64,000 bases of DNA, from positions 130,110-194,109 of the forward strand of contig NZ_JBHUPY010000007.1 in the NCBI RefSeq assembly GCF_042688385.1, written 5' to 3'. The notes below the pieces were generated by a model, which was not told the DNA's origin, searched no databases, and saw nothing but the letters and a program-made list of their open reading frames with translations. The position numbers and the translations under genes were made by a program. Source of the DNA: Herpetosiphon sp. NSE202 (lineage in GTDB: Bacteria > Chloroflexota > Chloroflexia > Chloroflexales > Herpetosiphonaceae). This document shows, in pieces, positions 16,493 through 55,125 of the stretch. Every line of letters begins with the position of its first letter. Positions within the stretch are counted from its first letter, which is position 1.

Positions 16493-16935
16493 GGATGAAG
16501 GATGAGGGATGAGGGATGAGGGATGAGGGGTGAAGGGACGAGGATTCAGGATTCAGGAACAAGCAACCACGAAGAGCACGAAGAACGCGAAGGCTGAGGA
16601 TAAACACATTAATAATTCAGCACTATCACTTAACGCAGAGGCGCAGAGATTCCAGGGCTATTGGCTATTGGCTATCGGAACATCATTCGTGCAATTCGTG
16701 CAATTCGTGGCTAAAATAGAGATTTGGCTATTGGCTTTGGGCTTCTGCGAACATCATTCGTGATCTTCGTGTTCTTCGTGGATCAATTTATTAACGCAGA
16801 GGCGCAGAGGAAATGTGGCTATTGGCTATTGGCTGTTGGCTCTGGGCTAGCAGAAACCAAATCCTAAAAATCTGTGCCAATCTATGGCTAAACAATAATG
16901 CTTCGTGTAATTCGTGCAATTCGTGGCGAAAAAAA
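16493..16935. repeat. Mosaic intergenic repeat cluster 1 (heptamer/decamer tandem modules)
   Basis: (GATGAGG)n 16493-16560; CACGAAGAGCACGAAGAACG 16567-16592; TTAACGCAGAGGCGCAGAG 16630-16648 and 16791-16810; (GGCTATT)n 16656-16678 and 16817-16850; (TTCGTGCAAT)n 16686-16710 and 16901-16927; CTTCGTGTTCTTCGTGGATC 16755-16784. The region lies between convergent genes. Confidence 0.85.
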
Positions 16936-24535: not shown

Positions 24536-24945
24536 CCCTTTCCTTATAATGAGGAGAGGGGTGTTTTTGTTAAGGCAGAAGTCAAAAGTCAAAAGTCAAA
24601 ATAGCCGCTGAAACCACGAAGAACGCGAAGAACGCGAAGTACATTTTAGCCACAGATTGCCCAGATTGTTTTGATTATCTTTCCACAGCCAAAAGCCATT
24701 AGCCTTGGAATCTCTGCGCCTCTGCGTTAAATGCCGATCCACGAAACATACGAAGGCTTTTATTTTTTCGCCACAGATTACACAGATTATTATTTTAATC
24801 TCTCAAAGTCATCAGCCAGGAACCTGAACCCTGACTACTATTGACTCCTTTTTTTGGTTTTTGACTTCTGACTTTTGACTTTTGACTTTAAAAAACGCTT
24901 CCCCCACAAACTCGTAGGTTCATGAGGGAAGCAAGGCTGAGAAAT
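24536..24945. repeat. Mosaic intergenic repeat cluster 2
   Basis: (GTCAAAA)n about 24575-24600; CACGAAGAACGCGAAGAACGCGAAG about 24613-24640; CTCTGCGCCTCTGCGTTAA about 24708-24730; (GACTTTT/GACTTCT)n about 24855-24895. Lies between convergent lon and nuoN. Confidence 0.8.
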
Positions 24946-30974: not shown

Positions 30975-31060
30975 TCCCGAAACAAGGCAGAAGGCAAAAG
31001 TCAGAAGTCAAAATACTCAGTTTCTATTTTTTGCCTTCTGCATTTTGCATTTTGCCTTTA
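30975..31060. repeat. Repeat element (imperfect inverted GTCAAAA/GCAAAAT modules) inside the nuo operon between nuoI and nuoJ
   Basis: aaggcagaaggcaaaagtcagaagtcaaaa ... ttttgccttctgcattttgcattttgcctt. The two halves are near reverse complements, giving a long imperfect hairpin in the nuoI-nuoJ spacer. Confidence 0.75.
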
Positions 31061-31567: not shown

Positions 31568-32159
31568 TGGCGATTCCTTTCTCGGTGCGTGACTCCCATG
31601 GCGTTCACGCCAAAACCGCCACTGTGCGTCAAGCGGCGGTGCAATGTTTTTCGAATCGGTGCCGTCGCGGGCGTGTTTATTTTATCACAATCTCTTGATA
31701 AGCCAAACAGGATGAGAAAAGGATGAAGGATGAATTATGCGGGAGTAAAAGAAGAACAAAGAGCATAGGGATTGGGGATCGGTTGTTAGGGATTGGGGAT
31801 TGGAGATTCAACTCTGCGTCTCTGCGTTAAATATCTGTTCGTTTAACGCAGAGGCGCAGAGAACCAAAGGATGAAATGCAAAAGGCAGAAAGCAAAAATT
31901 AAAAGGCAATAGCCTATAGCCTGTAGCTGTAATGGTTCATTGCGTTAACCATGGCCTGATCCCCTCACCCCCTAGCCCCCTCTCCCGCCCGCGAGGCGAG
32001 GGGGAATCACGAAACCCATGCTCCCCTCGCCCGCATTCAGTGGGAGCGGGGCTGGGGGTGAGGGCATGTTCTTGATTGCCAATCCAATGAACCATTACAT
32101 GTAGCCTGTAGCCTTTCATCACATCTTCGTGGCCCTTCGTGTCCTTCGTGGATCAAAAC
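31568..32159. repeat. Mosaic intergenic repeat cluster 4, with two long palindromes
   Basis: (GGGATTG)n about 31780-31810. Palindrome CTCTGCGTCTCTGCGTTAAA / TTTAACGCAGAGGCGCAGAG about 31813-31861. GGCAATAGCCTATAGCC modules. About 200-bp inverted repeat 31905-32115 centred on the G/C-rich module CCCTCACCCCCTAGCCCC...GGGAGCGGGGCTGGGGGTGAGGG (31961-32063). Ends with CTTCGTGGCCCTTCGTGTCCTTCGTGGATC 32120-32158. Confidence 0.85.
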
Positions 32160-33368
32160 CTAGCCAACAACTTCTTGCTCATTCCAGTCTTCAAACGGAT
32201 CATCGATATGCCAGAATTCGGCTGGTTGCTGCCATTCTTGATCTGTGAGTAAACAAGCATCCAATTGCTGTTGCAACCAAGCCTGATCAAAATCTTGGCC
32301 AATAAAGACTAATTCTTGGCGACGATCGCCAACGTGTGCATCCCACAAGGCCTCAATTTCAGCTCGTTCCTCGGCGGTTTCCGGCCACTCGCTTTGATCG
32401 CTATCGGCCCACCATTCGCCAGCAGGCTCGACGCGACAATTTTGGCCCGCCTGCGAGAGCAAGCCAGCAGTTGTTGGCTGCGAAATCACCCAAAAGAAAC
32501 CTTTGGCCCGAATCACGCCATGCCAATCGCTATTCACAAAGTCCCAAAAGCGTTGGGCCGAAAATGGTCGGCGTGCCCGATAAACCCAGCTGCGAATGCC
32601 ATATTCCTCAGTTTCGGGCGTGTGCTCACCACGCAATTCGGCCAGCCAGCCAGGCGCAGCACTCGCTTGATCAAAATCAAACAAGCCAGTATTGAGCATT
32701 GCGGCGAGCGGCACATTGCCATGAGTTGCATGCACAATTTTAGCCTGCGGATTAAGCGTACTCAGCAATTCGTGCAAGTGGGTTAGCTCTTCAGCACGAA
32801 TCAAATCGGTTTTGTTAATCACCAACACATTGCAAAACTCAATCTGATCGATTAACAGATCAACCAAGGTGCGTTCGTCAGCCTCATCAATTGCCAAATC
32901 GCGGTCGCGCAAATCGTGAGCAGCATTGAAATCGTGCAAAAAATTATGCGCATCAACTACCGTCACCAGCGTATCGAGCTTGGCAATTTCAGCCAAACTT
33001 ACGCCAGATTCATCCTCGAAAGTAAAGGTTTCGGCCACAGGCAAGGGTTCGGAGATGCCAGTTGATTCGATCAGCAGATAATCGAAACGCCCAGCGCGGG
33101 CCAATTTACCAACTTCAAGCAACAAATCTTCCCGCAACGTACAGCAAATACAGCCATTGCTGAGCTCGATCAATTGTTCTTCAACCCGATTGAGCGCCAG
33201 CTCGCCTTGGCCCACCAAGCGCGCATCGATATTCACTTCGCTCATATCATTCACGATCACGGCCACCCGCAGACCATCGCGATTGGCCAAAATATGATTT
33301 AATAAGGTGGTTTTTCCAGCACCGAGAAACCCTGAAAGCACAGTTACTGGAAGCGGCAACTTCGACAT
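32160..33368 (-). CDS. CobW/COG0523-family G3E GTPase (putative zinc metallochaperone)
   Basis: Walker [16 protein letters not shown], metal-binding CICCTLRED (CxCC), His/acidic-rich C-terminal domain. Start moved to ATG 33368 with RBS AGGA. Confidence 0.8.
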
Positions 33369-33508: not shown

Positions 33509-33581
33509 TCCCTGATAGCTCAGTTGGTAGAGCAATTGACTGTTAATCAATGGGTCCTAGGTTCGAGTCCTAGTCAGGGAG
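33509..33581 (+). tRNA. tRNA-Asn (GTT)
   Basis: Cloverleaf is readable: acceptor tccctga/tcaggga, D-arm gctcagttggtagagc, anticodon loop ctGTTaa, T-arm ggttcgagtcc. Followed by CCA. Confidence 0.85.
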
Positions 33582-33604
33582 CCACTTCTTTTTACAAATG
33601 ATAA

Positions 33605-33677
33605 TCCCTGATAGCTCAGTTGGTAGAGCGGTTGACTGTTAATCAGCATGTCCTAGGTTCGAGTCCTAGTCAGGGAG
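33605..33677 (+). tRNA. tRNA-Asn (GTT), second tandem copy
   Basis: Near-identical to the first copy (differs in the anticodon stem and variable region). Anticodon loop ctGTTaa, followed by CCA. Confidence 0.85.
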
Positions 33678-33686
33678 CCAAAGCAT

Positions 33687-34911: not shown

Positions 34912-34963
34912 AATGCAGCATCATCTCAATGCTCCATCAATGTGTAGGCCAATTTGCTGCCCA

Positions 34964-36259
34964 CTATTCAGAGCGGCCTACAAATGGCAAATACAATTTC
35001 CAACTTAGCGGAGTTATAGTCGGCGATGTGATGGTGACGGTTGTTGTTGGAGTGCTGGTTGGCGTGGTGCTGGTTGGCGTGGTTGATGGTGGAGTGCTGG
35101 TTGGCGTAGTAGTGGTTGCCGTCACGCTCGGTGGAGTGGTTGCAGTTGGCGTGATGGTTAAGGTCGGCGTAATCGTGACAATTGGTGTGATGCTTACCGT
35201 TGGTGTTACGGTTGGGGTAATCGTTGCAGTTGGCGTAACCGTTGCGGTTGGAATGATGGTTGCCGTCGGCGTGACCGTTGCGGTTGGCGTAACCGTTGCA
35301 GTTGGAATAACGGTTGCCGTCGGTGTGATGGTTGCGGTTGGCGTAACCGTTGCCGTTGGAATGATGGTTGCGGTAGGCGTGACGGTTGCCGTTGGGGTAA
35401 TCGTTGCGGTTGGTGTGATGGTTGCTGTCGGGATGATCGTTGCGATTGGCGTGACGGTTGCTGTTGGCGCAGGAATGTCAGCAAACAAGATCATGTATAG
35501 GGCACTATTTGTCCCTATATTGCGCGCATCACCGGACAGAAAATTGAAGTCGGTTTGCCCATTGACATTGCGATAATAACCATAGTTTGGCGCACCTAAC
35601 GGTACCGAGCCAGCAGCAAAGGCTGGAGCACCTGCACCGCCACGAATTGCTGTAGTCAGGTTCGTCGTATCAACAAGGCCAGCACCGCTATCGCCACGAA
35701 TATTGATCGTAACACCATGGTCGCTGAGGCCAGTCAGAGTCAACGGGTTCGTCAACGGAATTGAAATATCGTAAAGTCCTCCCGCTACGAGGTTACCGCC
35801 GCCAAGATCAAAGCTGAGTAAACCACCAACAGGGTTTGTAAACACCTGCGTATTGGTAGCATTGAAACTATCCCAAAATTGAATTCGAACTTGGATGTTG
35901 GTATAGGTGGTTGCGGAGAGTGAAACCAGCCCAAACTGGAGTGCCGTAATATCGCTTGCTGTTGCCAGATTGAACGGTTGTCCCATATAGGTATGGGGTG
36001 CGTTTGCAAAATTAATAAAATCATCAGCCCCAGTGATTGTATCGAATACTGGGGTGATTACCTGCGGCAAACGAGCATTCGTCAGTAACGTGCCACTAGG
36101 CTTGAGTTGCCCCATTGATGTGTCGCGCGCAACTTCAGGCAAGCCCTGTGCTGGACGTGTAGCGCTGGTCGTCGTTGGCGAAACTGCCAAGCCGGCAAGC
36201 AGCGCTAACAAACAACCAACAGCACTCAAAATTCCCAACTGGCGATGGATTCGATTCAT
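34964..36259 (-). CDS. Secreted protein with N-terminal globular domain and C-terminal (TPTATI/V)n Pro/Thr repeat region
   Basis: Signal peptide MNRIHRQLGILSAVGCLLALLAGLAV. About 16 hexapeptide repeats TPTATVTPTATI..., then a Thr/Pro/Ser-rich tail. The + strand ORF 34929-35576 is an antisense artefact of the repeat. Confidence 0.55.
   Translation of the reverse strand: MNRIHRQLGILSAVGCLLALLAGLAVSPTTTSATRPAQGLPEVARDTSMGQLKPSGTLLTNARLPQVITPVFDTITGADDFINFANAPHTYMGQPFNLATASDITALQFGLVSLSATTYTNIQVRIQFWDSFNATNTQVFTNPVGGLLSFDLGGGNLVAGGLYDISIPLTNPLTLTGLSDHGVTINIRGDSGAGLVDTTNLTTAIRGGAGAPAFAAGSVPLGAPNYGYYRNVNGQTDFNFLSGDARNIGTNSALYMILFADIPAPTATVTPIATIIPTATITPTATITPTATVTPTATIIPTATVTPTATITPTATVIPTATVTPTATVTPTATIIPTATVTPTATITPTVTPTVSITPIVTITPTLTITPTATTPPSVTATTTTPTSTPPSTTPTSTTPTSTPTTTVTITSPTITPLSWKLYLPFVGRSE
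35040..35480. repeat. 18-bp period tandem repeat array (coding for PT repeats)
   Basis: Units like ggttgccgtcggcgtgac / ggttgcggttggcgtaac repeated about 20 times with point variation. Confidence 0.8.
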
Positions 36260-38859: not shown

Positions 38860-39250
38860 TGGATTCTAACTCTAATGTTACATTGGATGGGCAAGCAGTG
38901 GAATGCCCTCACCCCCAGCCCCGCTCCCACTGAACGCGGGCGAGGGGAGCACAGACTCTGTGGTTCCCTCGTGTCCGTTCGACGGGCGCGGGGGTGAGGG
39001 GAAATCAGTGGTTAAGTGATGTACTATTATATCTAACGCCTATGCCATTTTTGCTTCTGATTTTTGGTAGCCTCCCTAATCCTTTATCTTTTCCATTGGC
39101 CCAGATTCGCTCAAATTATTCTTTCCCAAAGCCAAAAGACAATAGCCAATAGCCTGATCCCTTTTGACTTCTGACTTCTGACTTCTGACTTCTGATTTTT
39201 GCTTTGGCATTTCATCCTTCATCCCTCATCCTTCATCCTTTCAAAATTAC
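38860..39250. repeat. Mosaic intergenic repeat cluster 5
   Basis: G/C-rich hairpin module CCCTCACCCCCAGCCCCGCTCCCACTGAACGCGGGCGAGGGGAGC...CGGGCGCGGGGGTGAGGG at 38906-39001; CAATAGCCAATAGCC; (GACTTCT)x4 at about 39165-39195; CATCCTTCATCCCTCATCCTTCATCC at about 39215-39240. Confidence 0.85.
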
Positions 39251-42099: not shown

Positions 42100-42316
42100 A
42101 CCCCTTTTATAGAAGTATGAAGGATGAATTATGAGGGATGAAATACTTCTTCAGCCATTCACACCTTATTTATTGAAGGATGAATTTCATTGCTCACATA
42201 TTCACACCTTTTTAGAAATAAGCAATAATTCAAAGCCGCAAAAATCCTATCCCTCATCCCTCATCCCTCATCCCTCATCCCTCATCCCTCATCCCTCATC
42301 CCTCATCCCTCATCCT
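42100..42316. repeat. Mosaic repeat cluster 6 with (CCTCATC)x9 heptamer run
   Basis: GAAGGATGAATTATGAGGGATGAAA modules, then (CCCTCAT)n 42250-42316. The run overlaps the last 4 codons and the stop of proB. Confidence 0.85.
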
Positions 42317-43429: not shown

Positions 43430-43795
43430 AAGATGAGTATAAAACGCTATTTTAACGCCTAGCTCCAAATTGATTTCAACCAAACCATAAAAGCTGCGTT
43501 TTGAAACCACGAAGAGCACGAAGAGCACGAAGATCGAAAATCACGAATGTTATTTTTTTAGCCACGAATTACACGAATTGCGCCAAGCTGTGGCTATCGG
43601 CTATTGAGTTTTGACCTTTGACTTTTGACCTTTGATTTGGTATTTCATCCCTCATCCTTCAGCCTTCATCCTTATTTTCTGCCTTTTGATTTTTGACTTC
43701 TGAATTTGCTCTATGCTCTATGTTCTATGTTCTAAAATCAACAGGCCACAGAGCAAAATACTCCATGGCCTGTAGGAACTTAGTCGTTATATCAA
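43430..43795. repeat. Mosaic intergenic repeat cluster 7
   Basis: CACGAAGAGCACGAAGAGCACGAAGATCG; CACGAATTACACGAATTG; GGCTATCGGCTATTG; (GACCTTT/GACTTTT)n; CATCCCTCATCCTTCAGCCTTCATCC; (CTCTATG)x4 at about 43708-43735. Ends with the hairpin ACAGGCCA...TGGCCTGT just downstream of secA. Confidence 0.85.
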
Positions 43796-47592: not shown

Positions 47593-47861
47593 TCCTCAAT
47601 CTGATCCACGAAGGGCACGAAGAGCACGAAGAACGAGAAACCACGAAGAGCGAGAAACCACGAAGGACGCGAAGCTCGCGAAGGCTGTTTTTAGCCACAG
47701 ATTTTTAGTATGAGGCTATGGGCTATGGGCTATGAGCTTTTGGAACCAGTGTCATTCACCAAACGTTCCGATAGCCTATAGCCTTCAGTCTATAGCCAAA
47801 CATCCTCTGAGCCTCTGCGTTAAAAATACGCTTTTGCCTTTTGCATTCTGCCTTTTGCCTT
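47593..47861. repeat. Mosaic intergenic repeat cluster 8
   Basis: CACGAAGGGCACGAAGAGCACGAAGAACGAGAAACCACGAAGAGCGAGAAACCACGAAGGACGCGAAG; TTTTTAGCCACAGATTTTTAG; (GGCTATG)x3; ATAGCCTATAGCC; GAGCCTCTGCGTTAAAAAT; TTTTGCCTTTTGCATTCTGCCTTTTGCC. Confidence 0.85.
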
Positions 47862-48449
47862 TCATCCTTTTAACGCTTCGATGCTACCAACCAGCAAGGG
47901 CACGCTATCGTTGATAAAGTTTTCGAGGTTTTGGCAGCGATCACTATAGAGCCAGCGGGCGGCCAAGGCAAATACCGACCAACTGAGCATAGTTGCCAAA
48001 AGTTGGCGTTGCATTGCTGCTACGTTGCGTAACGGCAAATAATGATCAAGCCATGTTTGAATATGTTGCTCTAGCATGCGTTTGATCTGGGTTTCAGCCA
48101 ACGAATCGAAAAAACGATGATATTGATTGCACTGGCCATGAATCATCGCCCAATGGTCGGCGATTGCCCACAGCAAAGCTTGCATATAGCGGGTTGGCGT
48201 GTCGGGATAATGCTGCATACGCCGATCAAGAAACATCATAAAGCCATCACGAATCAGTTCATCAACTAAGGCATATTTATCGCTGAAATGAGCATAGAAG
48301 GTTGCCCGATTAATCGTCGCAGCTTCGGCAATCTCGTTAACTGTCACTTCCTCGAAGGTACGTGTGCGCAAGAGCTGAATCAAGGCATCGAGAATTAATT
48401 TGCGCGTGCGCTTGGTGCGCGGGTCAATTTTAACAGCGTTTCCCAACAT
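47862..48449 (-). CDS. TetR/AcrR-family transcriptional regulator
   Basis: N-terminal HTH TVNEIAEAATINRATFYAHFSDKYALV. Confidence 0.85.
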   Translation of the reverse strand: MLGNAVKIDPRTKRTRKLILDALIQLLRTRTFEEVTVNEIAEAATINRATFYAHFSDKYALVDELIRDGFMMFLDRRMQHYPDTPTRYMQALLWAIADHWAMIHGQCNQYHRFFDSLAETQIKRMLEQHIQTWLDHYLPLRNVAAMQRQLLATMLSWSVFALAARWLYSDRCQNLENFINDSVPLLVGSIEALKG

Positions 48450-48590: not shown

Positions 48591-49475
48591 ATGGCTCATA
48601 CTCAAGGTTTGGTCGCAATCACCGGTGCAGCAGGTCAATTAGGACGCTTGGTTTTGCAAGAAGTATTGGCAAAAGTTGGGGCAAATCAAGTTGTAGCAAT
48701 CACCCGTGATCCAGCCAAATTGGCCGATGTTGCCGCTCAAGGCGTAAAAGTTGTCGCTGGCGATTTCAACGATCCAGCAAGTTTGACCGCTGCGTTGGCC
48801 GGAGTCGAACGAGTTTTGCTGATCAGCATCGATGTAGTTGGCAGCGAACGAGTGCGTTTGCAAACTGGTGCGGTAAAAGCAATCGCTGACGCTGGCGTGA
48901 AACACATCGTTTATACCTCAGCAACAAATCCTGCCGCAGCCCCAATGGAATTTGTGCGCGAACACGCTGCGACCGAGGAAGCAATTAAGGCCAGTAGCTT
49001 GAGCTACAGCTTCTTGCGCAATAACTTCTATTTTGAAACGATCACCGATAAGGTAAAAGGCGCTTTGGCAAGTGGCGTAATTGCCGCCGCCGCTGGCGAC
49101 GCTGCTGCTGGCTTGGTTGCCCGCGCCGATTGTGCTGCTGCCGCCGCTGCTGCCTTGGTGAGCGATAGCACCGCTTCAGAAGTGTACAACATTACTGGCC
49201 CGGTCAGCTTAACCCACAAAGCCATTGCTGAAACCGTCGCTGAATTTGCAGGCCGCGACGTGGTGTATCAGCCAATCGATGCCGCCAGCGCCCAACAACA
49301 ACTTGAGCAATACGGCCTGCCAGCGCCAGTTGCCGGTTTTGTCGTCGCCATCGATCACGATTTGATCGGCTCAGGCGCGTTGGATGTTGTGAGCAACGAT
49401 GTTGAGCGCTTGACTGGCAAACCAGCGCAATCATTGGGCGAATATCTTAACGCCAATCGGGCGTTGTTTAGCTAA
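48591..49475 (+). CDS. NmrA-like / atypical SDR NAD(P)-binding oxidoreductase
   Basis: Rossmann motif VAITGAAGQLGR at the N-terminus; divergently paired with a TetR gene (common arrangement). RBS GAGGTT before ATG 48591. Confidence 0.7.
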   Translation: MAHTQGLVAITGAAGQLGRLVLQEVLAKVGANQVVAITRDPAKLADVAAQGVKVVAGDFNDPASLTAALAGVERVLLISIDVVGSERVRLQTGAVKAIADAGVKHIVYTSATNPAAAPMEFVREHAATEEAIKASSLSYSFLRNNFYFETITDKVKGALASGVIAAAAGDAAAGLVARADCAAAAAAALVSDSTASEVYNITGPVSLTHKAIAETVAEFAGRDVVYQPIDAASAQQQLEQYGLPAPVAGFVVAIDHDLIGSGALDVVSNDVERLTGKPAQSLGEYLNANRALFS

Positions 49476-49747
49476 TTTCCCTCACCCCAACCCCTCTCCC
49501 GTCCAACGGGCGAGGGCTTTTTGATTCCGTGGTTTTCGAATGATTCAGCGACTCCCCCCTCTCCCGTGGCGCGGGCGAGGGGCTTTTGGTTGTGTGGGTT
49601 TGGCATGATTGGGGGTGAAAACGGGTGCTCCCCCTCGCCCGCGTTTTCGTGGGCGAGGGGGTTGGGGGGTGAGGGAACGCTCCACCACCGACCAATCGCT
49701 CAAAACCGACCCTTGAAAGAATGGGGCTGGGGGGTGAGGGAACTACA
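49476..49747. repeat. Mosaic intergenic repeat cluster 9 (G/C-rich hairpin modules x5)
   Basis: Alternating forward and reverse copies of CCCTCACCCCAACCCCTCTCCCGTCCAACGGGCGAGGG / CTCCCCCTCGCCCGCGTTTTCGTGGGCGAGGGGGTTGGGGGGTGAGGG. Confidence 0.85.
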
Positions 49748-50638
49748 CTATTTGCTGGTCGTAGGGTTATGAATTGGCAAGCCAACCACATTGCCCCATT
49801 CCGTCCATGAGCCGTCGTAATTGCGCACGTTTTTGTAGCCCAAGAGTTCGTGCAGCACAAACCACGTCAACGATGAGCGTTCGCCAATGCGGCAATAGAC
49901 CACAGTATCGCTTTCGGGCGTTACGCCAACATCGCCATACAATTGCGTAATTTCATCAGCGCTCTTGAAGGTGCCATCGTCGTTAACTGCTTTGGCCCAA
50001 GGCACATTGACCGCGCCTGGAATGTGGCCGCCACGCACCGCGCCTTCTTGAGGATATTCGGGCATGTGCAATTTTTTGCCAGTAAATTCATCGGGCGAGC
50101 GCACATCGACCAAGCTATGGCCTGCTGGCAAGTCAATTGCGGTTTGGCGGGCATTTGGGCGGCCAATATGGGCCAGCACATCATCGCGGAACGCGCGAAT
50201 TTCGGGCTTTGGTTCGCCAACAACATACTGGGTTGGCTCGAAGCTTGGCACCACCCGCGTCAATTCGCGGCCTTCGTCGATCCATTTTTTGCGCCCGCCG
50301 TTCATAATTTTGAGCTTTTCGTGGCCAAGCAATTGAAAAACCCAATAGGCATAGCAGGCCCACCAATTATTTTTATCGCCATAAAAAACGATGGTGGTGT
50401 CGTTGCTAATGCCAAAGCGGCTCAGCAGCGCAGCAAATGCATCGCCATCAATATAATCGCGAATCTGCACATCATTTAAATCATCTTGCCAATTGATTTT
50501 AACCGCGTTAGCGATATGGCCCATTTCATAGAGCAAAATATCTTCATCCGATTCAACCAAACGCACATCGGCATCGTTCAAATGCTCAGCAACCCAATCG
50601 GTGCTCACCAACACATCAGGATTCACGTAATCGCTCAT
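49748..50638 (-). CDS. sseA: Thiosulfate/3-mercaptopyruvate sulfurtransferase (tandem rhodanese domains)
   Basis: Two rhodanese domains; active-site CRIGERSS in the C-terminal domain. Confidence 0.85.
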
Positions 50639-51077: not shown

Positions 51078-52496
51078 CTAGCCGACCGAGCCTTCCATTT
51101 CCATTTGGATCAAGCGGTTCAATTCGACAGCGTATTCCATGGGCAATTCACGGGTGAATGGCTCCATAAAGCCCAATACAATCATCGAAAGTGCTTCGGC
51201 TTCGTCGAGGCCGCGGCTCATCAGATAGAACAATTGCTCTTCGCCGATTTTGCCGACGGTTGCTTCGTGGGCCACAGTCGCTGAATCTTCCTCGATCTCG
51301 ATGTAGGGAATCGTATCCGAGGCTGAGCGATCGTCGAGAATCAAGGCATCACAGACCACGTTGATTTTGGCGTTGTGTGCGCCCCGTTGAACTTTGGCCA
51401 ACCCACGATAGGTTGTGCGACCGCCGTTCTTCGAGACTGATTTGTTGGTGATGCGGCTGGTGGTGTCGGGAGCGCCGTGCACCATTTTGGCCCCAGCGTC
51501 TTGATGTTGGCCTTCGCCAGCGTAGGCAACTGAGAGCACCTCGCCCTTTGCGCCGCGACCCATCATGTAGACTGCTGGATACTTCATGGTCAACTTCGAG
51601 CCAATGTTGCCATCAACCCATTCCATCGAAGCATCTTCGTAGGCAACAGCGCGTTTGGTCACCAAATTGAAAATGTTGTTGGCCCAGTTTTGAATCGTGG
51701 TATAGCGGCATTTACCACCTTTCTTCACGATAATTTCCACCACTGCTGAGTGCAGCGAGTTGGTGCTATAGACTGGCGCGGTACAACCTTCGATATAGTG
51801 AACTTCTGCGCCTTCATCGACGATAATCAAGGTACGTTCGAATTGGCCCATGTTTTCAGCATTGATGCGGAAATAGGCTTGCAATGGAATATCGACCTTG
51901 ACACCTTTTGGCACATACACGAACGAGCCACCAGACCAAACTGCTGTGTTCAAAGCAGCAAATTTGTTATCGGCTGAAGGAATGATCGTGCCGAAATATT
52001 CCTTGAATAACTCAGGATATTCTTTCAAACCTGTGTCAGTGTCAAGGAAAATTACGCCCAGTTTTTCCCACTCTTCGCGCAACGAGTGGTAAACAACTTC
52101 TGATTCGTATTGAGCGCCAACGCCAGCCAAGAACTTGCGTTCGGCTTCAGGAATACCCAATTTTTCAAAGGTATTCTTGATATTTTCTGGCACATCGTCC
52201 CAGCTATTTTCGGCCCGTTCGCCAGGCCGCACATAATAGTGAATATCTTGGAAATCCAACTCAGCCAAGCGTGGGTTGGCCCACACGCCACTGACTGGCA
52301 GTGGTTTTTTATGGAAAATTTCCAGCGCCTTCAAGCGGCGTTGCAACATCCATTCAGGTTCGCCCTTCATTTCCGAGATCGTGCGCACAATATCGGCATT
52401 CAGACCTTTTGAAGATTTGAATGTATAGTTCTCTTCGTCGCGAAAGCCGTACTTCGAGTAATCAAACTCGATCTCGTTTTGTGCAGGGTTGGACAT
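51078..52496 (-). CDS. sufB: Fe-S cluster assembly protein SufB
   Basis: 472 aa, SufB/SufD beta-helix family with SufB-specific N-terminus ([18 protein letters not shown]). Confidence 0.9.
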
Positions 52497-54919: not shown

Positions 54920-55125
54920 CCACGCCTCCCAAAAACAGTTGGTTCCGAATTACTAGATACACAAACCAACTATTTTTGGGATGGCACAAAAAACAAACTT
55001 CGTGTCCTTGGTGCTCTTCGTGGATCACATCATTAAACTTCATCGACCAACAAATCATTTTCATCCACTTGTGAATCACACAAAAAACAAACTTCGTGTC
55101 CTTCGTGCCCTTCGTGGATCAAAAC
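54920..55125. repeat. Mosaic repeat cluster 10b with 17-bp-stem hairpin, 5' of the GxxExxY pseudogene
   Basis: Hairpin CCCAAAAACAGTTGGTT ... AACCAACTATTTTTGGG (54928-54980); CTTCGTGTCCTTGGTGCTCTTCGTGGATC and CTTCGTGTCCTTCGTGCCCTTCGTGGATC modules. Confidence 0.8.

Follow-up and report, generated by a model that had tools for sequence, protein, structure and literature searches.

The G/C-rich modules found in three intergenic spacers of a 64,000-nucleotide stretch of Herpetosiphon sp. NSE202 DNA (hereafter the window) are probably three-block repeats of the BoxC / PIT / TMECO kind, forming a local Herpetosiphonaceae subfamily of a family found in many bacterial phyla (probability approximately 0.6). 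Judged by their pattern, they are not a new element: the pattern is that of BoxC, PIT, TMECO and HPG1-2 (PMC4666352, PMC5100583). BoxC has also been named PIT (Hoyne and Maher 2000, 2002) and TMECO, an intrastrand triplex motif (Holder et al. 2015, PMC4666352), and HPG1/HPG2 is a G-quadruplex-hairpin-duplex switch of the same E. coli family (Kaplan et al. 2016, PMC5100583). A module consists of a 9-11 bp G/C hairpin, made of block 2 (CCCCTCTCCC) and block 3 (GGGAGAGGGG or GGGCGAGGGG), and of a third block, CCCTCACCCC (block 1), which lies 2-4 nt upstream of the hairpin and resembles block 2. It would be non-coding, non-autonomous DNA and not a gene.

The modules are 40-48 nt long and are built as CCCTCACCCC, 2-4 nt, CCCC[T/G]C[T/G]CCC, a loop, GGGCGAGGGG and AG. 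Exact CCCTCACCCC occurs seven times in the window, every time at loci 1-3. With up to one mismatch there are 19 matches (1.8 expected), 12 of which are (GGGATGA)n heptamer arrays and lie outside the exact set. An earlier note on this DNA had described a 45-nt module at three loci, with five copies at the third. The 45-mer occurs twice with one base of difference (32020-32064, minus strand, and 38906-38950, plus strand), and modules are present at all three loci. Loci 1 and 2 are head-to-head pairs (31962-32064 and 38906-39001); locus 3 (49479-49740) holds four units and not five, two of them full (3a, 3c) and two partial (3b, 3d). The features of the three loci are the following.

31928-32099, no strand assigned: 172-bp unit enclosing modules 1a and 1b, with perfect 15-bp inverted ends (31928-31942 and 32085-32099).
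31962-32004, plus strand: module 1a, C-orientation, CCCTCACCCCC-TAG-CCCCCTCTCCC-loop-GGCGAGGGGG, left half of the locus 1 pair.
32020-32064, minus strand: module 1b, CCCTCACCCCC-AG-CCCCGCTCCC-ACTGAATGC-GGGCGAGGGG-AGC, the 45-mer of the earlier note, right half of the locus 1 pair.
38906-38950, plus strand: module 2a, the same as 1b save for one loop base.
38964-39001, minus strand: module 2b, degenerate, CCCCTCACCCCC-GCGCCCG-TCGAA-CGGACACGAGGGAA, pairing with 2a in an imperfect long hairpin.
49479-49516, plus strand, with a T-rich tail to 49523: module 3a, CCCTCACCCC-AA-CCCCTCTCCC-GTCCAAC-GGGCGAGGG-CTTTTTG.
49554-49582, plus strand, with a tail to 49589: unit 3b, hairpin only and without block 1, CCCCCCTCTCCC-GTGGCGC-GGGCGAGGGG, tail CTTTTGG.
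49627-49675, minus strand: module 3c, CCCTCACCCCCC-AA-CCCCCTCGCCC-ACGAAAACGC-GGGCGAGGGGG-AGC.
49723-49740, minus strand: stump 3d, without hairpin, CCCTCACCCCCC-AG-CCCC only, beginning 8 nt past the rhodanese stop codon.

All modules of the window are intergenic and stand beside unrelated genes in three different arrangements: cobW-like and nuoI in tandem at locus 1, a hypothetical gene and a divergent merR-like gene at locus 2, and convergent nmrA-like and rhodanese genes at locus 3. Exact-protein look-ups of the flanking proteins (cobW-like, rhodanese, merR-like, NmrA-like and 225-aa) found no record. The inverted pairs join unlike subtypes, 1a with 1b and 2a with 2b.

Modules and the E. coli BoxC family have the blocks CCCTC[T/G]CCC, GGGAGAGGG and GGGTGAGGG in common. 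On its G strand module 3a reads CCCTCGCCCG-TTGGA-CGGGAGAGGGG-TT-GGGGTGAGGG, and its E. coli TMECO counterpart reads CCCTCGCCCC-TTT-GGGGAGAGGG-TTA-GGGTGAGGGG. The three-block arrangement was defined as CCCTCNCCC, GGGNGAGGG and GGGNGAGGG in this order on one strand, the first two forming the hairpin and the third following the purine-motif rule. It is found in 3a, 3c and 1a, and also in 1b and 2a with R1 = GGGAGCGGG (GGGNGNGGG); 2b is degenerate, 3b has no third block and 3d no hairpin. A loosened form of the pattern gave three matches in the window, one of them 1b, and none in 200 shuffles. The strict published TMECO pattern (9-nt blocks, first loop N3-6, second loop exactly 3 nt), run as a regular expression over the window, gave no match, for which reason the modules are classed with these elements by kind and not as strict TMECO. 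Counted with 9-nt blocks, the module loops are 7-10 nt (first) and 4-7 nt (second).

Both the E. coli elements and the modules stand exclusively between genes, either alone or as inverted pairs of two subtypes (in E. coli pairs type A is always found with type B), have a G4 motif on their G strand, lie in strain-variable spacers and lack a linked transposase. Both also have a polar G.A mismatch ('mm') between the Y block and the first R block, with the G in the distal block. The TCT/CGA form is seen in 1a, 3a and 3b, and module 3c, a compensated TCG/CGA variant, has a perfect stem. TCT/CGA was counted against TCG/AGA 23 to 0 in genomes and 27 to 2 in IMG/VR, 50 to 2 in total, a polarity that agrees with E. 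coli type 'A mm'. The window copies differ from TMECO in their blocks of 10-11 nt, a spacer of 2-3 nt between the G blocks and hairpin loops of 5-10 nt, and the polarity of their pairs is the reverse of that in E. coli hrpB-mrcB, with CCCTCACCCC facing outward. A local 'GCT' variant of block 2 (in 1b, 2a and the relative L129) is not a feature of E. coli, nor are the terminator-like T tails on some of the window copies. The host is a member of the Chloroflexota, whereas that of the E. coli family belongs to the Proteobacteria.

RNA folding, which the earlier note had proposed as a check, gave strong z-scores for loci 1 and 2 (-4.3 to -8.0). Positions 31905-32115 fold with -110.8 kcal/mol on the plus strand and -117.4 kcal/mol on the minus strand (z = -7.6 and -8.0), positions 38895-39012 with z = -5.6 and -4.3. 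The lone exemplar 45-mer folds no better than shuffles (z -0.4 and +0.1), so the structure of these two loci is due to pairing between modules. The extended hairpin expected at every locus is thus seen at loci 1 and 2, where it is long and imperfect, but not at locus 3, which folds mostly into separate local hairpins. Folded alone, module 1a is marginal (z -1.3), 1b and stump 3d show no significant fold, 3c reaches -29.5 kcal/mol (z -3.8), and 3a is stabler on the G strand (-12.9 kcal/mol, z -4.6) than on the C strand (-9.6 kcal/mol, z -3.7). Across the family 96.6% of the stem pairs are Watson-Crick, and the outer loop positions can pair in 71-81% of cases, where 27-32% would be expected, with all four pair types in use; the compensatory pairing among copies that the earlier note asked about is therefore present. 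The non-Watson-Crick stem pairs have no G.U bias, and family-wide the hairpin is equally stable on both strands.

Canonical G4 motifs number eight in the window, five of them in modules, with 1.3 motifs in shuffles; the quadruplex potential suggested earlier for the G-rich strand thus stands as a prediction. The G-strand blocks also obey the purine-motif triplex rule, as the E. coli ones do, this being a rule of sequence only. The G-quadruplex and hairpin potential is real, yet it has already been published for the E. coli family (PMC5100583).

The family is not unique to the window, and the same blocks were found in other phyla, on plasmids and on phage-like contigs. Among the matches listed they occur in Chloroflexota, Planctomycetota, Acidobacteriota, Pseudomonadota, Armatimonadota and others. 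The third block, which was absent from the search pattern, is present in 103 of the 147 genome matches and 79 of the 144 viral-contig matches (IMG/VR) listed. Plasmid records gave 43 matches, and some modules lie in true phage contexts, between phage structural genes. A BLAST search of the consensus module against curated phage genomes gave no match, nor did a metagenome scan for the core specific to 1b and 2a. The blocks are identical to the letter between phyla, while loops, spacers and tails vary and are lineage-specific. Loops are identical in 30% of the pairs within a locus and in 0.9% of the pairs between genomes. Together with the single base that separates 1b from 2a, this loop identity indicates that copies amplify within genomes. 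Copy number differs widely in some clades: Enterobacter asburiae LF7a has 143 copies and its relatives fewer than 30, and E. coli 55989 and IHE3034, like Cupriavidus sp. EM10 and CH34, are further pairs with an extreme difference. At 118 module loci the only recurrent neighbour is an ABC-transporter-like cluster (6 loci), and no Y1-transposase-like or other linked mobilising enzyme was found. Where identical modules stand inverted to each other, the genes they enclose are of luciferase-like, hydrolase, portal and terminase type, with no transposase.

The spacers that carry modules vary between close strains, as a qualitative comparison of the window with its close relatives (Herpetosiphonaceae) L127, L129 and L250 shows. 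In L127 NuoI is identical and the flanks are 97-100% identical, yet the entire locus 1 cassette is missing. Locus 3 of L129 has one module, the orthologue of 3a, against four units in the window; 3a is the only window module with an orthologue in a relative. L250 and L122-L126 carry different sequence at locus 3. A suggestion that the module cluster is the point where a same-species short-read contig ends proved wrong; L250 differs in sequence after the rhodanese gene. A cassette swap like the one seen here is found in the E. coli adk-hemH spacer. Since relatives lack, reduce or replace the modules, these are dispensable at a given site, and the modules are therefore dispensable DNA in strain-variable spacers.

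As three-block repeats, modules would multiply within a genome and be lost or exchanged along with the variable middle of intergenic spacers. By analogy with E. coli, they may act through structures adopted when the DNA or its transcript is single-stranded. Candidate structures are the hairpin, in head-to-head pairs a long hairpin or cruciform, and, for the G-rich strand, a G-quadruplex or a purine-motif triplex; these could make polymerases stall and promote slippage, deletions and local duplications. In the E. coli family CD and NMR show triplex formation by a single-stranded TMECO oligonucleotide, CD supports G4 and hairpin forms, PIT elements stop DNA polymerase in vitro, and TMECO loci are more variable among strains than control loci (PMC4666352, PMC5100583). 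The same work gave no support for a triplex in double-stranded DNA or in vivo, no in vivo footprint and no promoter or terminator activity of PIT elements, for which reason the structural mechanism is put forward here as inferred. It likewise found no functional bias among neighbouring genes and no linked gene.

A main role at the RNA level, as intrinsic terminators or 3'-end stabilising hairpins with the C-rich block 1 as part of the signal, is unlikely. REP elements act as 3'-end stabilising hairpins in E. coli mRNAs. Terminator-like copies in the window are 3a, which begins 4 nt past the NmrA-like stop codon and ends in CTTTTTG, and 3b, with CTTTTGG; the L129 orthologue of 3a is a textbook case, a perfect 12-bp hairpin followed by the U-run CTTTTTGTTTTTG. 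At convergent locus 3 each gene meets C-orientation copies first, L124 has an ordinary terminator hairpin after the rhodanese gene in the equivalent position, and other phyla also have a subfamily whose spacer is 'AA' and whose tail is 'CTT'. However, T-rich tails are found in only 12 of 114 modules family-wide and are missing from 1a, 1b, 2a, 2b and 3d, a terminator scan of loci 1 and 2 found nothing, and locus 2 lies between divergent genes. The lack of G.U bias and the equal stability of the two strands also argue against it, as do the PIT elements of E. coli, which lack terminator activity. Orientation is without clear bias (38 vs 30, from a crude gene caller that put 45 of 107 modules inside 'genes'), and the conserved block 1 is left unexplained. 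Judged by sequence, 3a, 3b and the L129 orthologue probably have a further role as intrinsic terminators; for T-tailed copies directly past a stop codon this would be a secondary use and not the reason for the family to exist.

A passive structural repeat does not explain blocks that are identical to the letter across phyla. One might instead suppose a single pan-bacterial element, spread horizontally by phages and plasmids, whose G-rich single strand is recognised by a widely distributed factor that copies it without target-site duplication. The factor would be an HUH-type nuclease or transposase or a conserved host replication or repair enzyme, and the blocks would be letter-identical and the mismatch polar because of this recognition. 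We regard this as quite unlikely. If true, it would amount to a second REP/RAYT-like system, overlooked for 30 years, with the Herpetosiphonaceae copies showing its reach.

It is improbable that the modules are REP-like elements recognised on single-stranded DNA by an HUH / RAYT-type enzyme or another conserved factor. The hairpin and the adjacent conserved block would then form the recognition site, and the polar mismatch would distinguish the strands. Systems of the IS200/IS605 and REP/RAYT type use imperfect hairpins plus short flanking sequence. Like REP/BIME elements of enterobacteria and Pseudomonas, the modules are short, imperfectly palindromic and intergenic, stand singly or in inverted clusters, amplify within genomes and vary from strain to strain. 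Their conserved blocks beside variable loops, spacers and tails, their sharp ends (single-module flank test) and the one-sided mismatch (50 vs 2) would fit, and carriage by phages and plasmids could move them between hosts. The modules nevertheless have no GTAG-type REP signature and, as in the E. coli study, neither a RAYT- or Y1-transposase-like gene nor any other recurrent gene nearby. REP sequences are species-specific, whereas the module blocks are the same across phyla.

Nor do we think it at all likely that the modules are selected non-B DNA switches which regulate neighbouring genes or adaptively raise local mutation or recombination. The five G4 motifs, the agreement with the triplex rule, the stabler G strand of 3a (-12.9 vs -9.6 kcal/mol), the strain-variable spacers here and in E. 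coli, and the published in vitro triplex and G4 formation are all compatible with such a role. In E. coli, though, neither a footprint in vivo nor a triplex in duplex DNA was seen, and neighbouring genes had no functional bias; in the window the three loci have unrelated neighbours in three arrangements. The spacers may also be variable anyway, as arrays and other hairpins there differ too.

The earlier note had also likened the head-to-head units to MITEs, that is, non-autonomous elements with terminal inverted repeats whose transposase is encoded elsewhere in the genome. As a general explanation this is very improbable, and the resemblance is confined to the locus 1 unit. The further inverted repeat that was claimed around the locus 1 palindrome, TGTAATGGTTCATTG / CAATGAACCATTACA, is indeed complementary in 15 of 15 positions. 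Like the bacterial MITEs Correia/NEMIS, Nezha and RUP, the unit is about 170 bp long and intergenic, with inverted ends and a long hairpin, and is present in one strain (the window) and missing from another (L127). TGTAGC stands on either side (31922-31927 and 32100-32105) within a (TAGCCTG)n array, and deletion of the 172-bp unit with one TGTAGC restores a perfect heptamer array; the repeat is ambiguous as a target-site duplication because the surrounding array alone would yield it. The locus 2 pair is flanked on both sides by CAGTGG (38896-38901 and 39006-39011), which may be chance, as it is the sole direct repeat of at least 6 bp among 30 inverted pairs tested. Over the family as a whole (30 inverted pairs, 204 single modules) the proposed check for target-site duplications showed no excess of direct repeats in the flanks over controls; in having no family-wide duplication the modules differ from bacterial MITEs. 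Terminal inverted repeats are found on the 172-bp unit only and not on single modules. Neither the unit nor its ends have a second copy in the window, and JGI metagenomes, scanned for exact matches to both 15-bp ends at a distance of 125-155 nt, gave none. With one known copy, an ambiguous flanking repeat and no known parent IS, the unit differs from the MITEs named. Comparison with L127 does not show a clean insertion, since the spacer's middle part is exchanged over its full 355 nt, and no transposase lies near the modules.

That the loci are structured non-coding RNA genes, as also suggested, is scarcely credible despite the strong folding of loci 1 and 2 and the compensatory pairs of the hairpin: Rfam passes only tRNAs in the whole window at the gathering threshold and gives only sub-threshold microRNA-type chance matches for locus 1 at E <= 10, the modules are gone from the equivalent spacer of the near-identical strain L127, and they are multi-copy in both orientations, fold symmetrically on both strands without G.U bias and have no promoter-like site attached. 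KOPS-like, anti-Shine-Dalgarno-like and Rho-loading readings of the C- and G-rich blocks were set aside for lack of an exact match or strand bias.

The modules had further been viewed as embedded in clusters of heptamer repeats and forming a composite element with them. Heptamer arrays adjoin modules at locus 1 only (31768-31808); the distance is at least 160 nt at locus 2, and locus 3 has no arrays. In about seven further spacers of the window there are arrays but no modules, as in the spacer of L127 equivalent to locus 1. Since arrays and modules occur independently, the composite reading finds no support. G-rich heptamer G4 repeats, GGGNATC and GGGGATT, have been described in Xanthomonas and Nostoc (Rehm et al. 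2015, PMC4692102). They resemble the modules in being intergenic, G4-capable and widespread, but are tandem arrays of 7 nt, whereas the modules are three-block hairpins.

For the annotation of the window, the modules are to be treated as dispensable repeats and not as genes. Short-read assemblies will probably break at them, and they are a likely source of spurious ORFs, e.g. 49468-49860 and 49521-49772. BoxC, known since the 1990s, has successively been interpreted as a palindrome, as a triplex and as a G-quadruplex switch; we know of no function shown for it. With a universal core, local amplification, no target duplication and no linked gene, the question narrows to what recognises or regenerates the core. 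Published work places the strict motif in the Proteobacteria or describes it as fading with distance from E. coli; the window and the scans show the same blocks and polar mismatch in Chloroflexota, Planctomycetota, Acidobacteria and others. Strains with very different copy numbers open tractable comparisons.

The repeat under study is a three-block, G/C-rich module of 40-48 nt. Read 5' to 3' on its C-rich strand, it consists of block 1 (CCCTCACCCC), a spacer of 2-4 nt, block 2 (CCCC[T/G]C[T/G]CCC), a loop of 5-10 nt and block 3 (GGG[A/C]GAGGGG), usually followed by AG. Blocks 2 and 3 form the hairpin, and block 1 nearly repeats the sequence of block 2, running in the same direction. The G-rich strand accordingly shows a pyrimidine block Y and two purine blocks, R1 and R2 (GGGGTGAGGG), whose four G-tracts make up a canonical G-quadruplex (G4) motif; modules account for five of the eight such motifs in the window (shuffles: 1.3). 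All copies are intergenic, in three spacers with three gene arrangements:

31962-32004, plus strand: module 1a, locus 1 (cobW-like / nuoI spacer, tandem genes)
32020-32064, minus strand: module 1b, locus 1
31928-32099: 172-bp unit enclosing 1a and 1b
38906-38950, plus strand: module 2a, locus 2 (hypothetical gene / merR-like spacer, divergent genes)
38964-39001, minus strand: module 2b, locus 2
49479-49516, plus strand: module 3a, full, locus 3 (nmrA-like / rhodanese spacer, convergent genes)
49554-49582, plus strand: module 3b, hairpin only
49627-49675, minus strand: module 3c, full
49723-49740, minus strand: module 3d, block-1 stump

The decamer CCCTCACCCC has exactly seven exact matches in the 64-kb window, all within the three loci. 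At one mismatch 19 matches were found against 1.8 expected, the other 12 being (GGGATGA)n heptamer arrays and not modules; a block-by-block search at one mismatch likewise restricted block clusters to the three loci. The 45-mer described in the earlier note occurs in two copies with one difference (32020-32064, minus; 38906-38950, plus). Direct reading of the sequences bore out the head-to-head pairing at loci 1 and 2, and the outer inverted repeat of locus 1 is complementary at 15/15 positions. The extended hairpins proposed in the earlier note hold in part: the composite 31905-32115 (-110.8 / -117.4 kcal/mol, z -7.6 / -8.0) and locus 2 (z -5.6 / -4.3) fold strongly, but the 45-mer alone folds no better than shuffles, and the four units of locus 3, which had been counted as five, form separate hairpins, not one long one. 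Two ORFs of 130 and 83 codons, 49468-49860 (minus) and 49521-49772 (plus), read through the module cluster, with products containing PSPPSP, GVGVR and GWGVR; repeats of the module type probably give rise to spurious hypothetical proteins in annotations.

Searched for in the full text of papers, the decamer pointed to the 'TMECO' motif of E. coli, formerly BoxC and then PIT (Holder et al. 2015, PMC4666352). Its pattern is 5'-CCCTCNCCC N3-6 GGGNGAGGG N3 GGGNGAGGG-3' and its commonest E. coli form is CCCTCGCCCC-TTT-GGGGAGAGGG-TTA-GGGTGAGGGG (PMC4666352). On the G strand, window copy 3a reads CCCTCGCCCG-TTGGA-CGGGAGAGGGG-TT-GGGGTGAGGG, with identical blocks and the identical G.A mismatch. Inverted BoxC pairs of E. 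coli are always made up of two subtypes (PMC4666352), and the same holds for loci 1 and 2. With their blocks of 10-11 nt and differing loops, all window copies fall outside the strict published pattern; a loosened three-block pattern matched three window copies and nothing in 200 shuffles. The E. coli hrpB-mrcB pair was taken for direct comparison: the window pairs have CCCTCACCCC outward, whereas that pair has its GGGTGAGGG blocks inward. Given this misfit and the opposite polarity, the modules are, as judged from their sequence, the same kind of element as BoxC/PIT/TMECO, but do not belong to strict TMECO. The potential for hairpins and G4 suspected earlier is real but not new, being published for the E. 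coli relatives, whose sequences were described as a G-quadruplex-hairpin-duplex switch (Kaplan et al. 2016, PMC5100583).

GTDB species genomes were scanned with blocks 1 and 2 only, which gave at least 118 stretches. The matches listed come from Anaerolineae, Dehalococcoidia, Thermomicrobiales, Chloroflexales, Planctomycetota, Acidobacteriota, Armatimonadota, Xanthomonas, Pseudomonas, Rhodanobacter, Myxococcota, Elusimicrobia and others. As an internal control, block 3, which lay outside the search pattern, stood at the right distance in 103/147 of the matches listed; those without it were mostly C-rich heptamer arrays. When the hairpin alone was used in an unbiased scan, the third block was found as CCCTCACCC upstream in 61/64 or GGGTGAGGG downstream in 49/53 cases, and in 16/31 hairpins independent of the search pattern. 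The same pattern gave at least 120 stretches in IMG/VR, with full modules in 79/144 of the matches listed. Two of these loci are clearly phage. On contig L148 (5103-6905) inverted modules with identical spacer and loop lie on both sides of a lambda-family portal gene, and on L162 (2524-6698) an inverted pair encloses a region including a large-terminase gene; the repeat is therefore present in real phage genomes. BLAST of the module returned 43 PLSDB plasmid or chromid records and no match among the curated phage genomes of INPHARED. The strict motif was reported from 262 proteobacterial genomes, or as fading with distance from E. coli (PMC4666352, PMC5100583), so that the phylum breadth seen among the matches listed extends the published picture.

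Across the family, 96.6% of stem pairs are Watson-Crick among the matches listed, and at the outermost 'loop' positions complementary bases face each other in 71-81% of cases (27-32% expected), all four pair types being used; compensatory change thus maintains the hairpin. Wobble pairs are few and show no bias (2 G.T and 6 A.C among the matches listed), and both strands fold equally well, a symmetry more in line with a DNA-level palindrome than with an RNA transcribed from one strand. The one common stem mismatch is polar: in block 2 / block 3 of the C orientation, TCT/CGA occurs 23 times and TCG/AGA 0 times among the genome matches listed, and 27 and 2 times among the viral-contig matches listed. 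The E. coli BoxC/TMECO mismatch has the same polarity. On the G strand, this polarity lets Y pair along its whole length with R2, one of the pairs being G.T. Modules end sharply, with no conserved position to the left of block 1; beyond the right edge of block 3, 62% of modules have A at position +1 and 52% have G at +2. Flanking direct repeats showed no excess over controls, and no recurrent gene family adjoined the modules at 118 loci among the matches listed. Identical loops make up 30% within one locus and 0.9% between genomes, so the core is universal and copies were amplified locally.

Rhodanese homologues placed the window in Herpetosiphonaceae, with named matches about 80% identical. 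In relative L127, NuoI is identical and the flanks are 97-100% identical to the window. In its cobW-nuoI spacer, the first 46 nt (from the cobW-like stop) and the last 209 nt (up to nuoI) are shared with the window; between them stand 186 nt unrelated to the window's 355 nt, without a module and without the 172-bp unit. In the stretches compared (window 31600-32160, L127 287-472), the array beside the conserved promoter-proximal part is GGGGATT-type in the window and GGATGAA-type in L127. The locus 1 spacer also holds a 20-nt inverted repeat (CTCTGCGTCTCTGCGTTAAA / TTTAACGCAGAGGCGCAGAG, 31812-31861, 95% complementary, 10-nt loop), unrelated to the modules and absent from L127.

In relative L129 (rhodanese 96% identical) a 78-nt spacer holds one module, the orthologue of 3a, with a different but matched stem followed by CTTTTTGTTTTTG; the window is about 194 nt longer, the extra part containing 3b, 3c and 3d. 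L250, with identical SufB, has unrelated sequence downstream of rhodanese. In more distant relatives an ordinary terminator occupies this place, and one of them has a degenerate module in a different spacer. Gene order breaks right after rhodanese (window 49476-49747; L122, L123, L124, L129, L250), the next gene being NmrA-like (window, L129), a type III CRISPR-Cas cluster (L123), a beta-helix protein (L124) or other (L122, L250). In the Herpetosiphonaceae relatives L122 (6441-9542) and L123 (7274-9607), SufB contains intein / homing-endonuclease domains (Hint, LAGLIDADG), but in the window (51078-52496) it has none; in other relatives the suf operon has an inserted PIN-domain gene (L124-L126) or PDDEXK_3 gene (L250).

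The BoxC spacer between adk and hemH of E. coli shows a cassette swap like that of the Herpetosiphonaceae spacers. The BoxC-bearing MG1655-type cassette occurs in 2915/5426 complete genomes, the others matching the query over only about 65% of its length. In the one O157:H7 genome that was aligned, a non-homologous 54-nt segment stands in place of the 158 nt that follow the MG1655 adk stop and include both BoxC and another hairpin; the spacer is a two-allele intergenic cassette and not a clean insertion. A 33-bp indel reported between E. cloacae isolates 16 SNPs apart is exactly one module hairpin.

Among the other readings offered in the earlier note, a MITE fits only the 172-bp unit of locus 1 (15-bp ends, TGTAGC on both sides), but that unit lies inside a heptamer array, and no second copy was found in the window or in an exact-match scan of JGI metagenomes. 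A composite with the heptamers fails because the arrays far outnumber the modules and are also found where modules are missing, among other places in the cobW-nuoI spacer of L127; they adjoin modules at locus 1 only. A structured ncRNA gene was rejected for lack of Rfam support, absence of the modules from a near-identical strain and strand symmetry.

Many intergenic spacers of the window hold short tandem arrays of 7-nt or 9-nt units, the unit differing per array (16493-16925, 24579-24889, 30984-31059, 31768-31808, 32125-32151, 39161-39240, 42112-42315, 43508-43734, 47607-47862, 55092-55116). The G-rich ones, GGGGATT (31768-31808) and GGGATGA (16493-16543 and 42249-42315), are canonical G4 motifs and resemble GGGNATC / GGGGATT repeats of Xanthomonas and Nostoc (PMC4692102). 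Also present are two tandem tRNA-Asn(GTT) genes (33509-33680; 96 nt apart, about 92% identical including flanks) and an 18-nt period repeat of 14.7 copies (35205-35469) inside overlapping ORFs 34929-35576 (plus) and 34964-36259 (minus), neither of which has a Pfam match.

The intrinsic-terminator form directly after a stop codon is seen in 3a, 3b and the L129 orthologue. This putative terminator use is taken as secondary, since T-rich tails occur in only 12/114 modules among the matches listed and a scan of loci 1 and 2 found no terminator-like site. For the E. coli elements, neither an in vivo footprint nor any promoter or terminator activity was seen (PMC4666352); as an isolated oligonucleotide their G strand folds into a triplex or G4, and DNA polymerase is blocked in vitro (PMC4666352, PMC5100583).

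The modules are non-coding, multi-copy, dispensable, variable between strains and held as hairpins. They would fold when DNA is single-stranded, and head-to-head pairs could extrude as long hairpins. Folded modules may promote stalling of polymerases and slippage as well as local duplication or deletion; this would account both for the expansion of locus 3 from one module to four and for spacer turnover.
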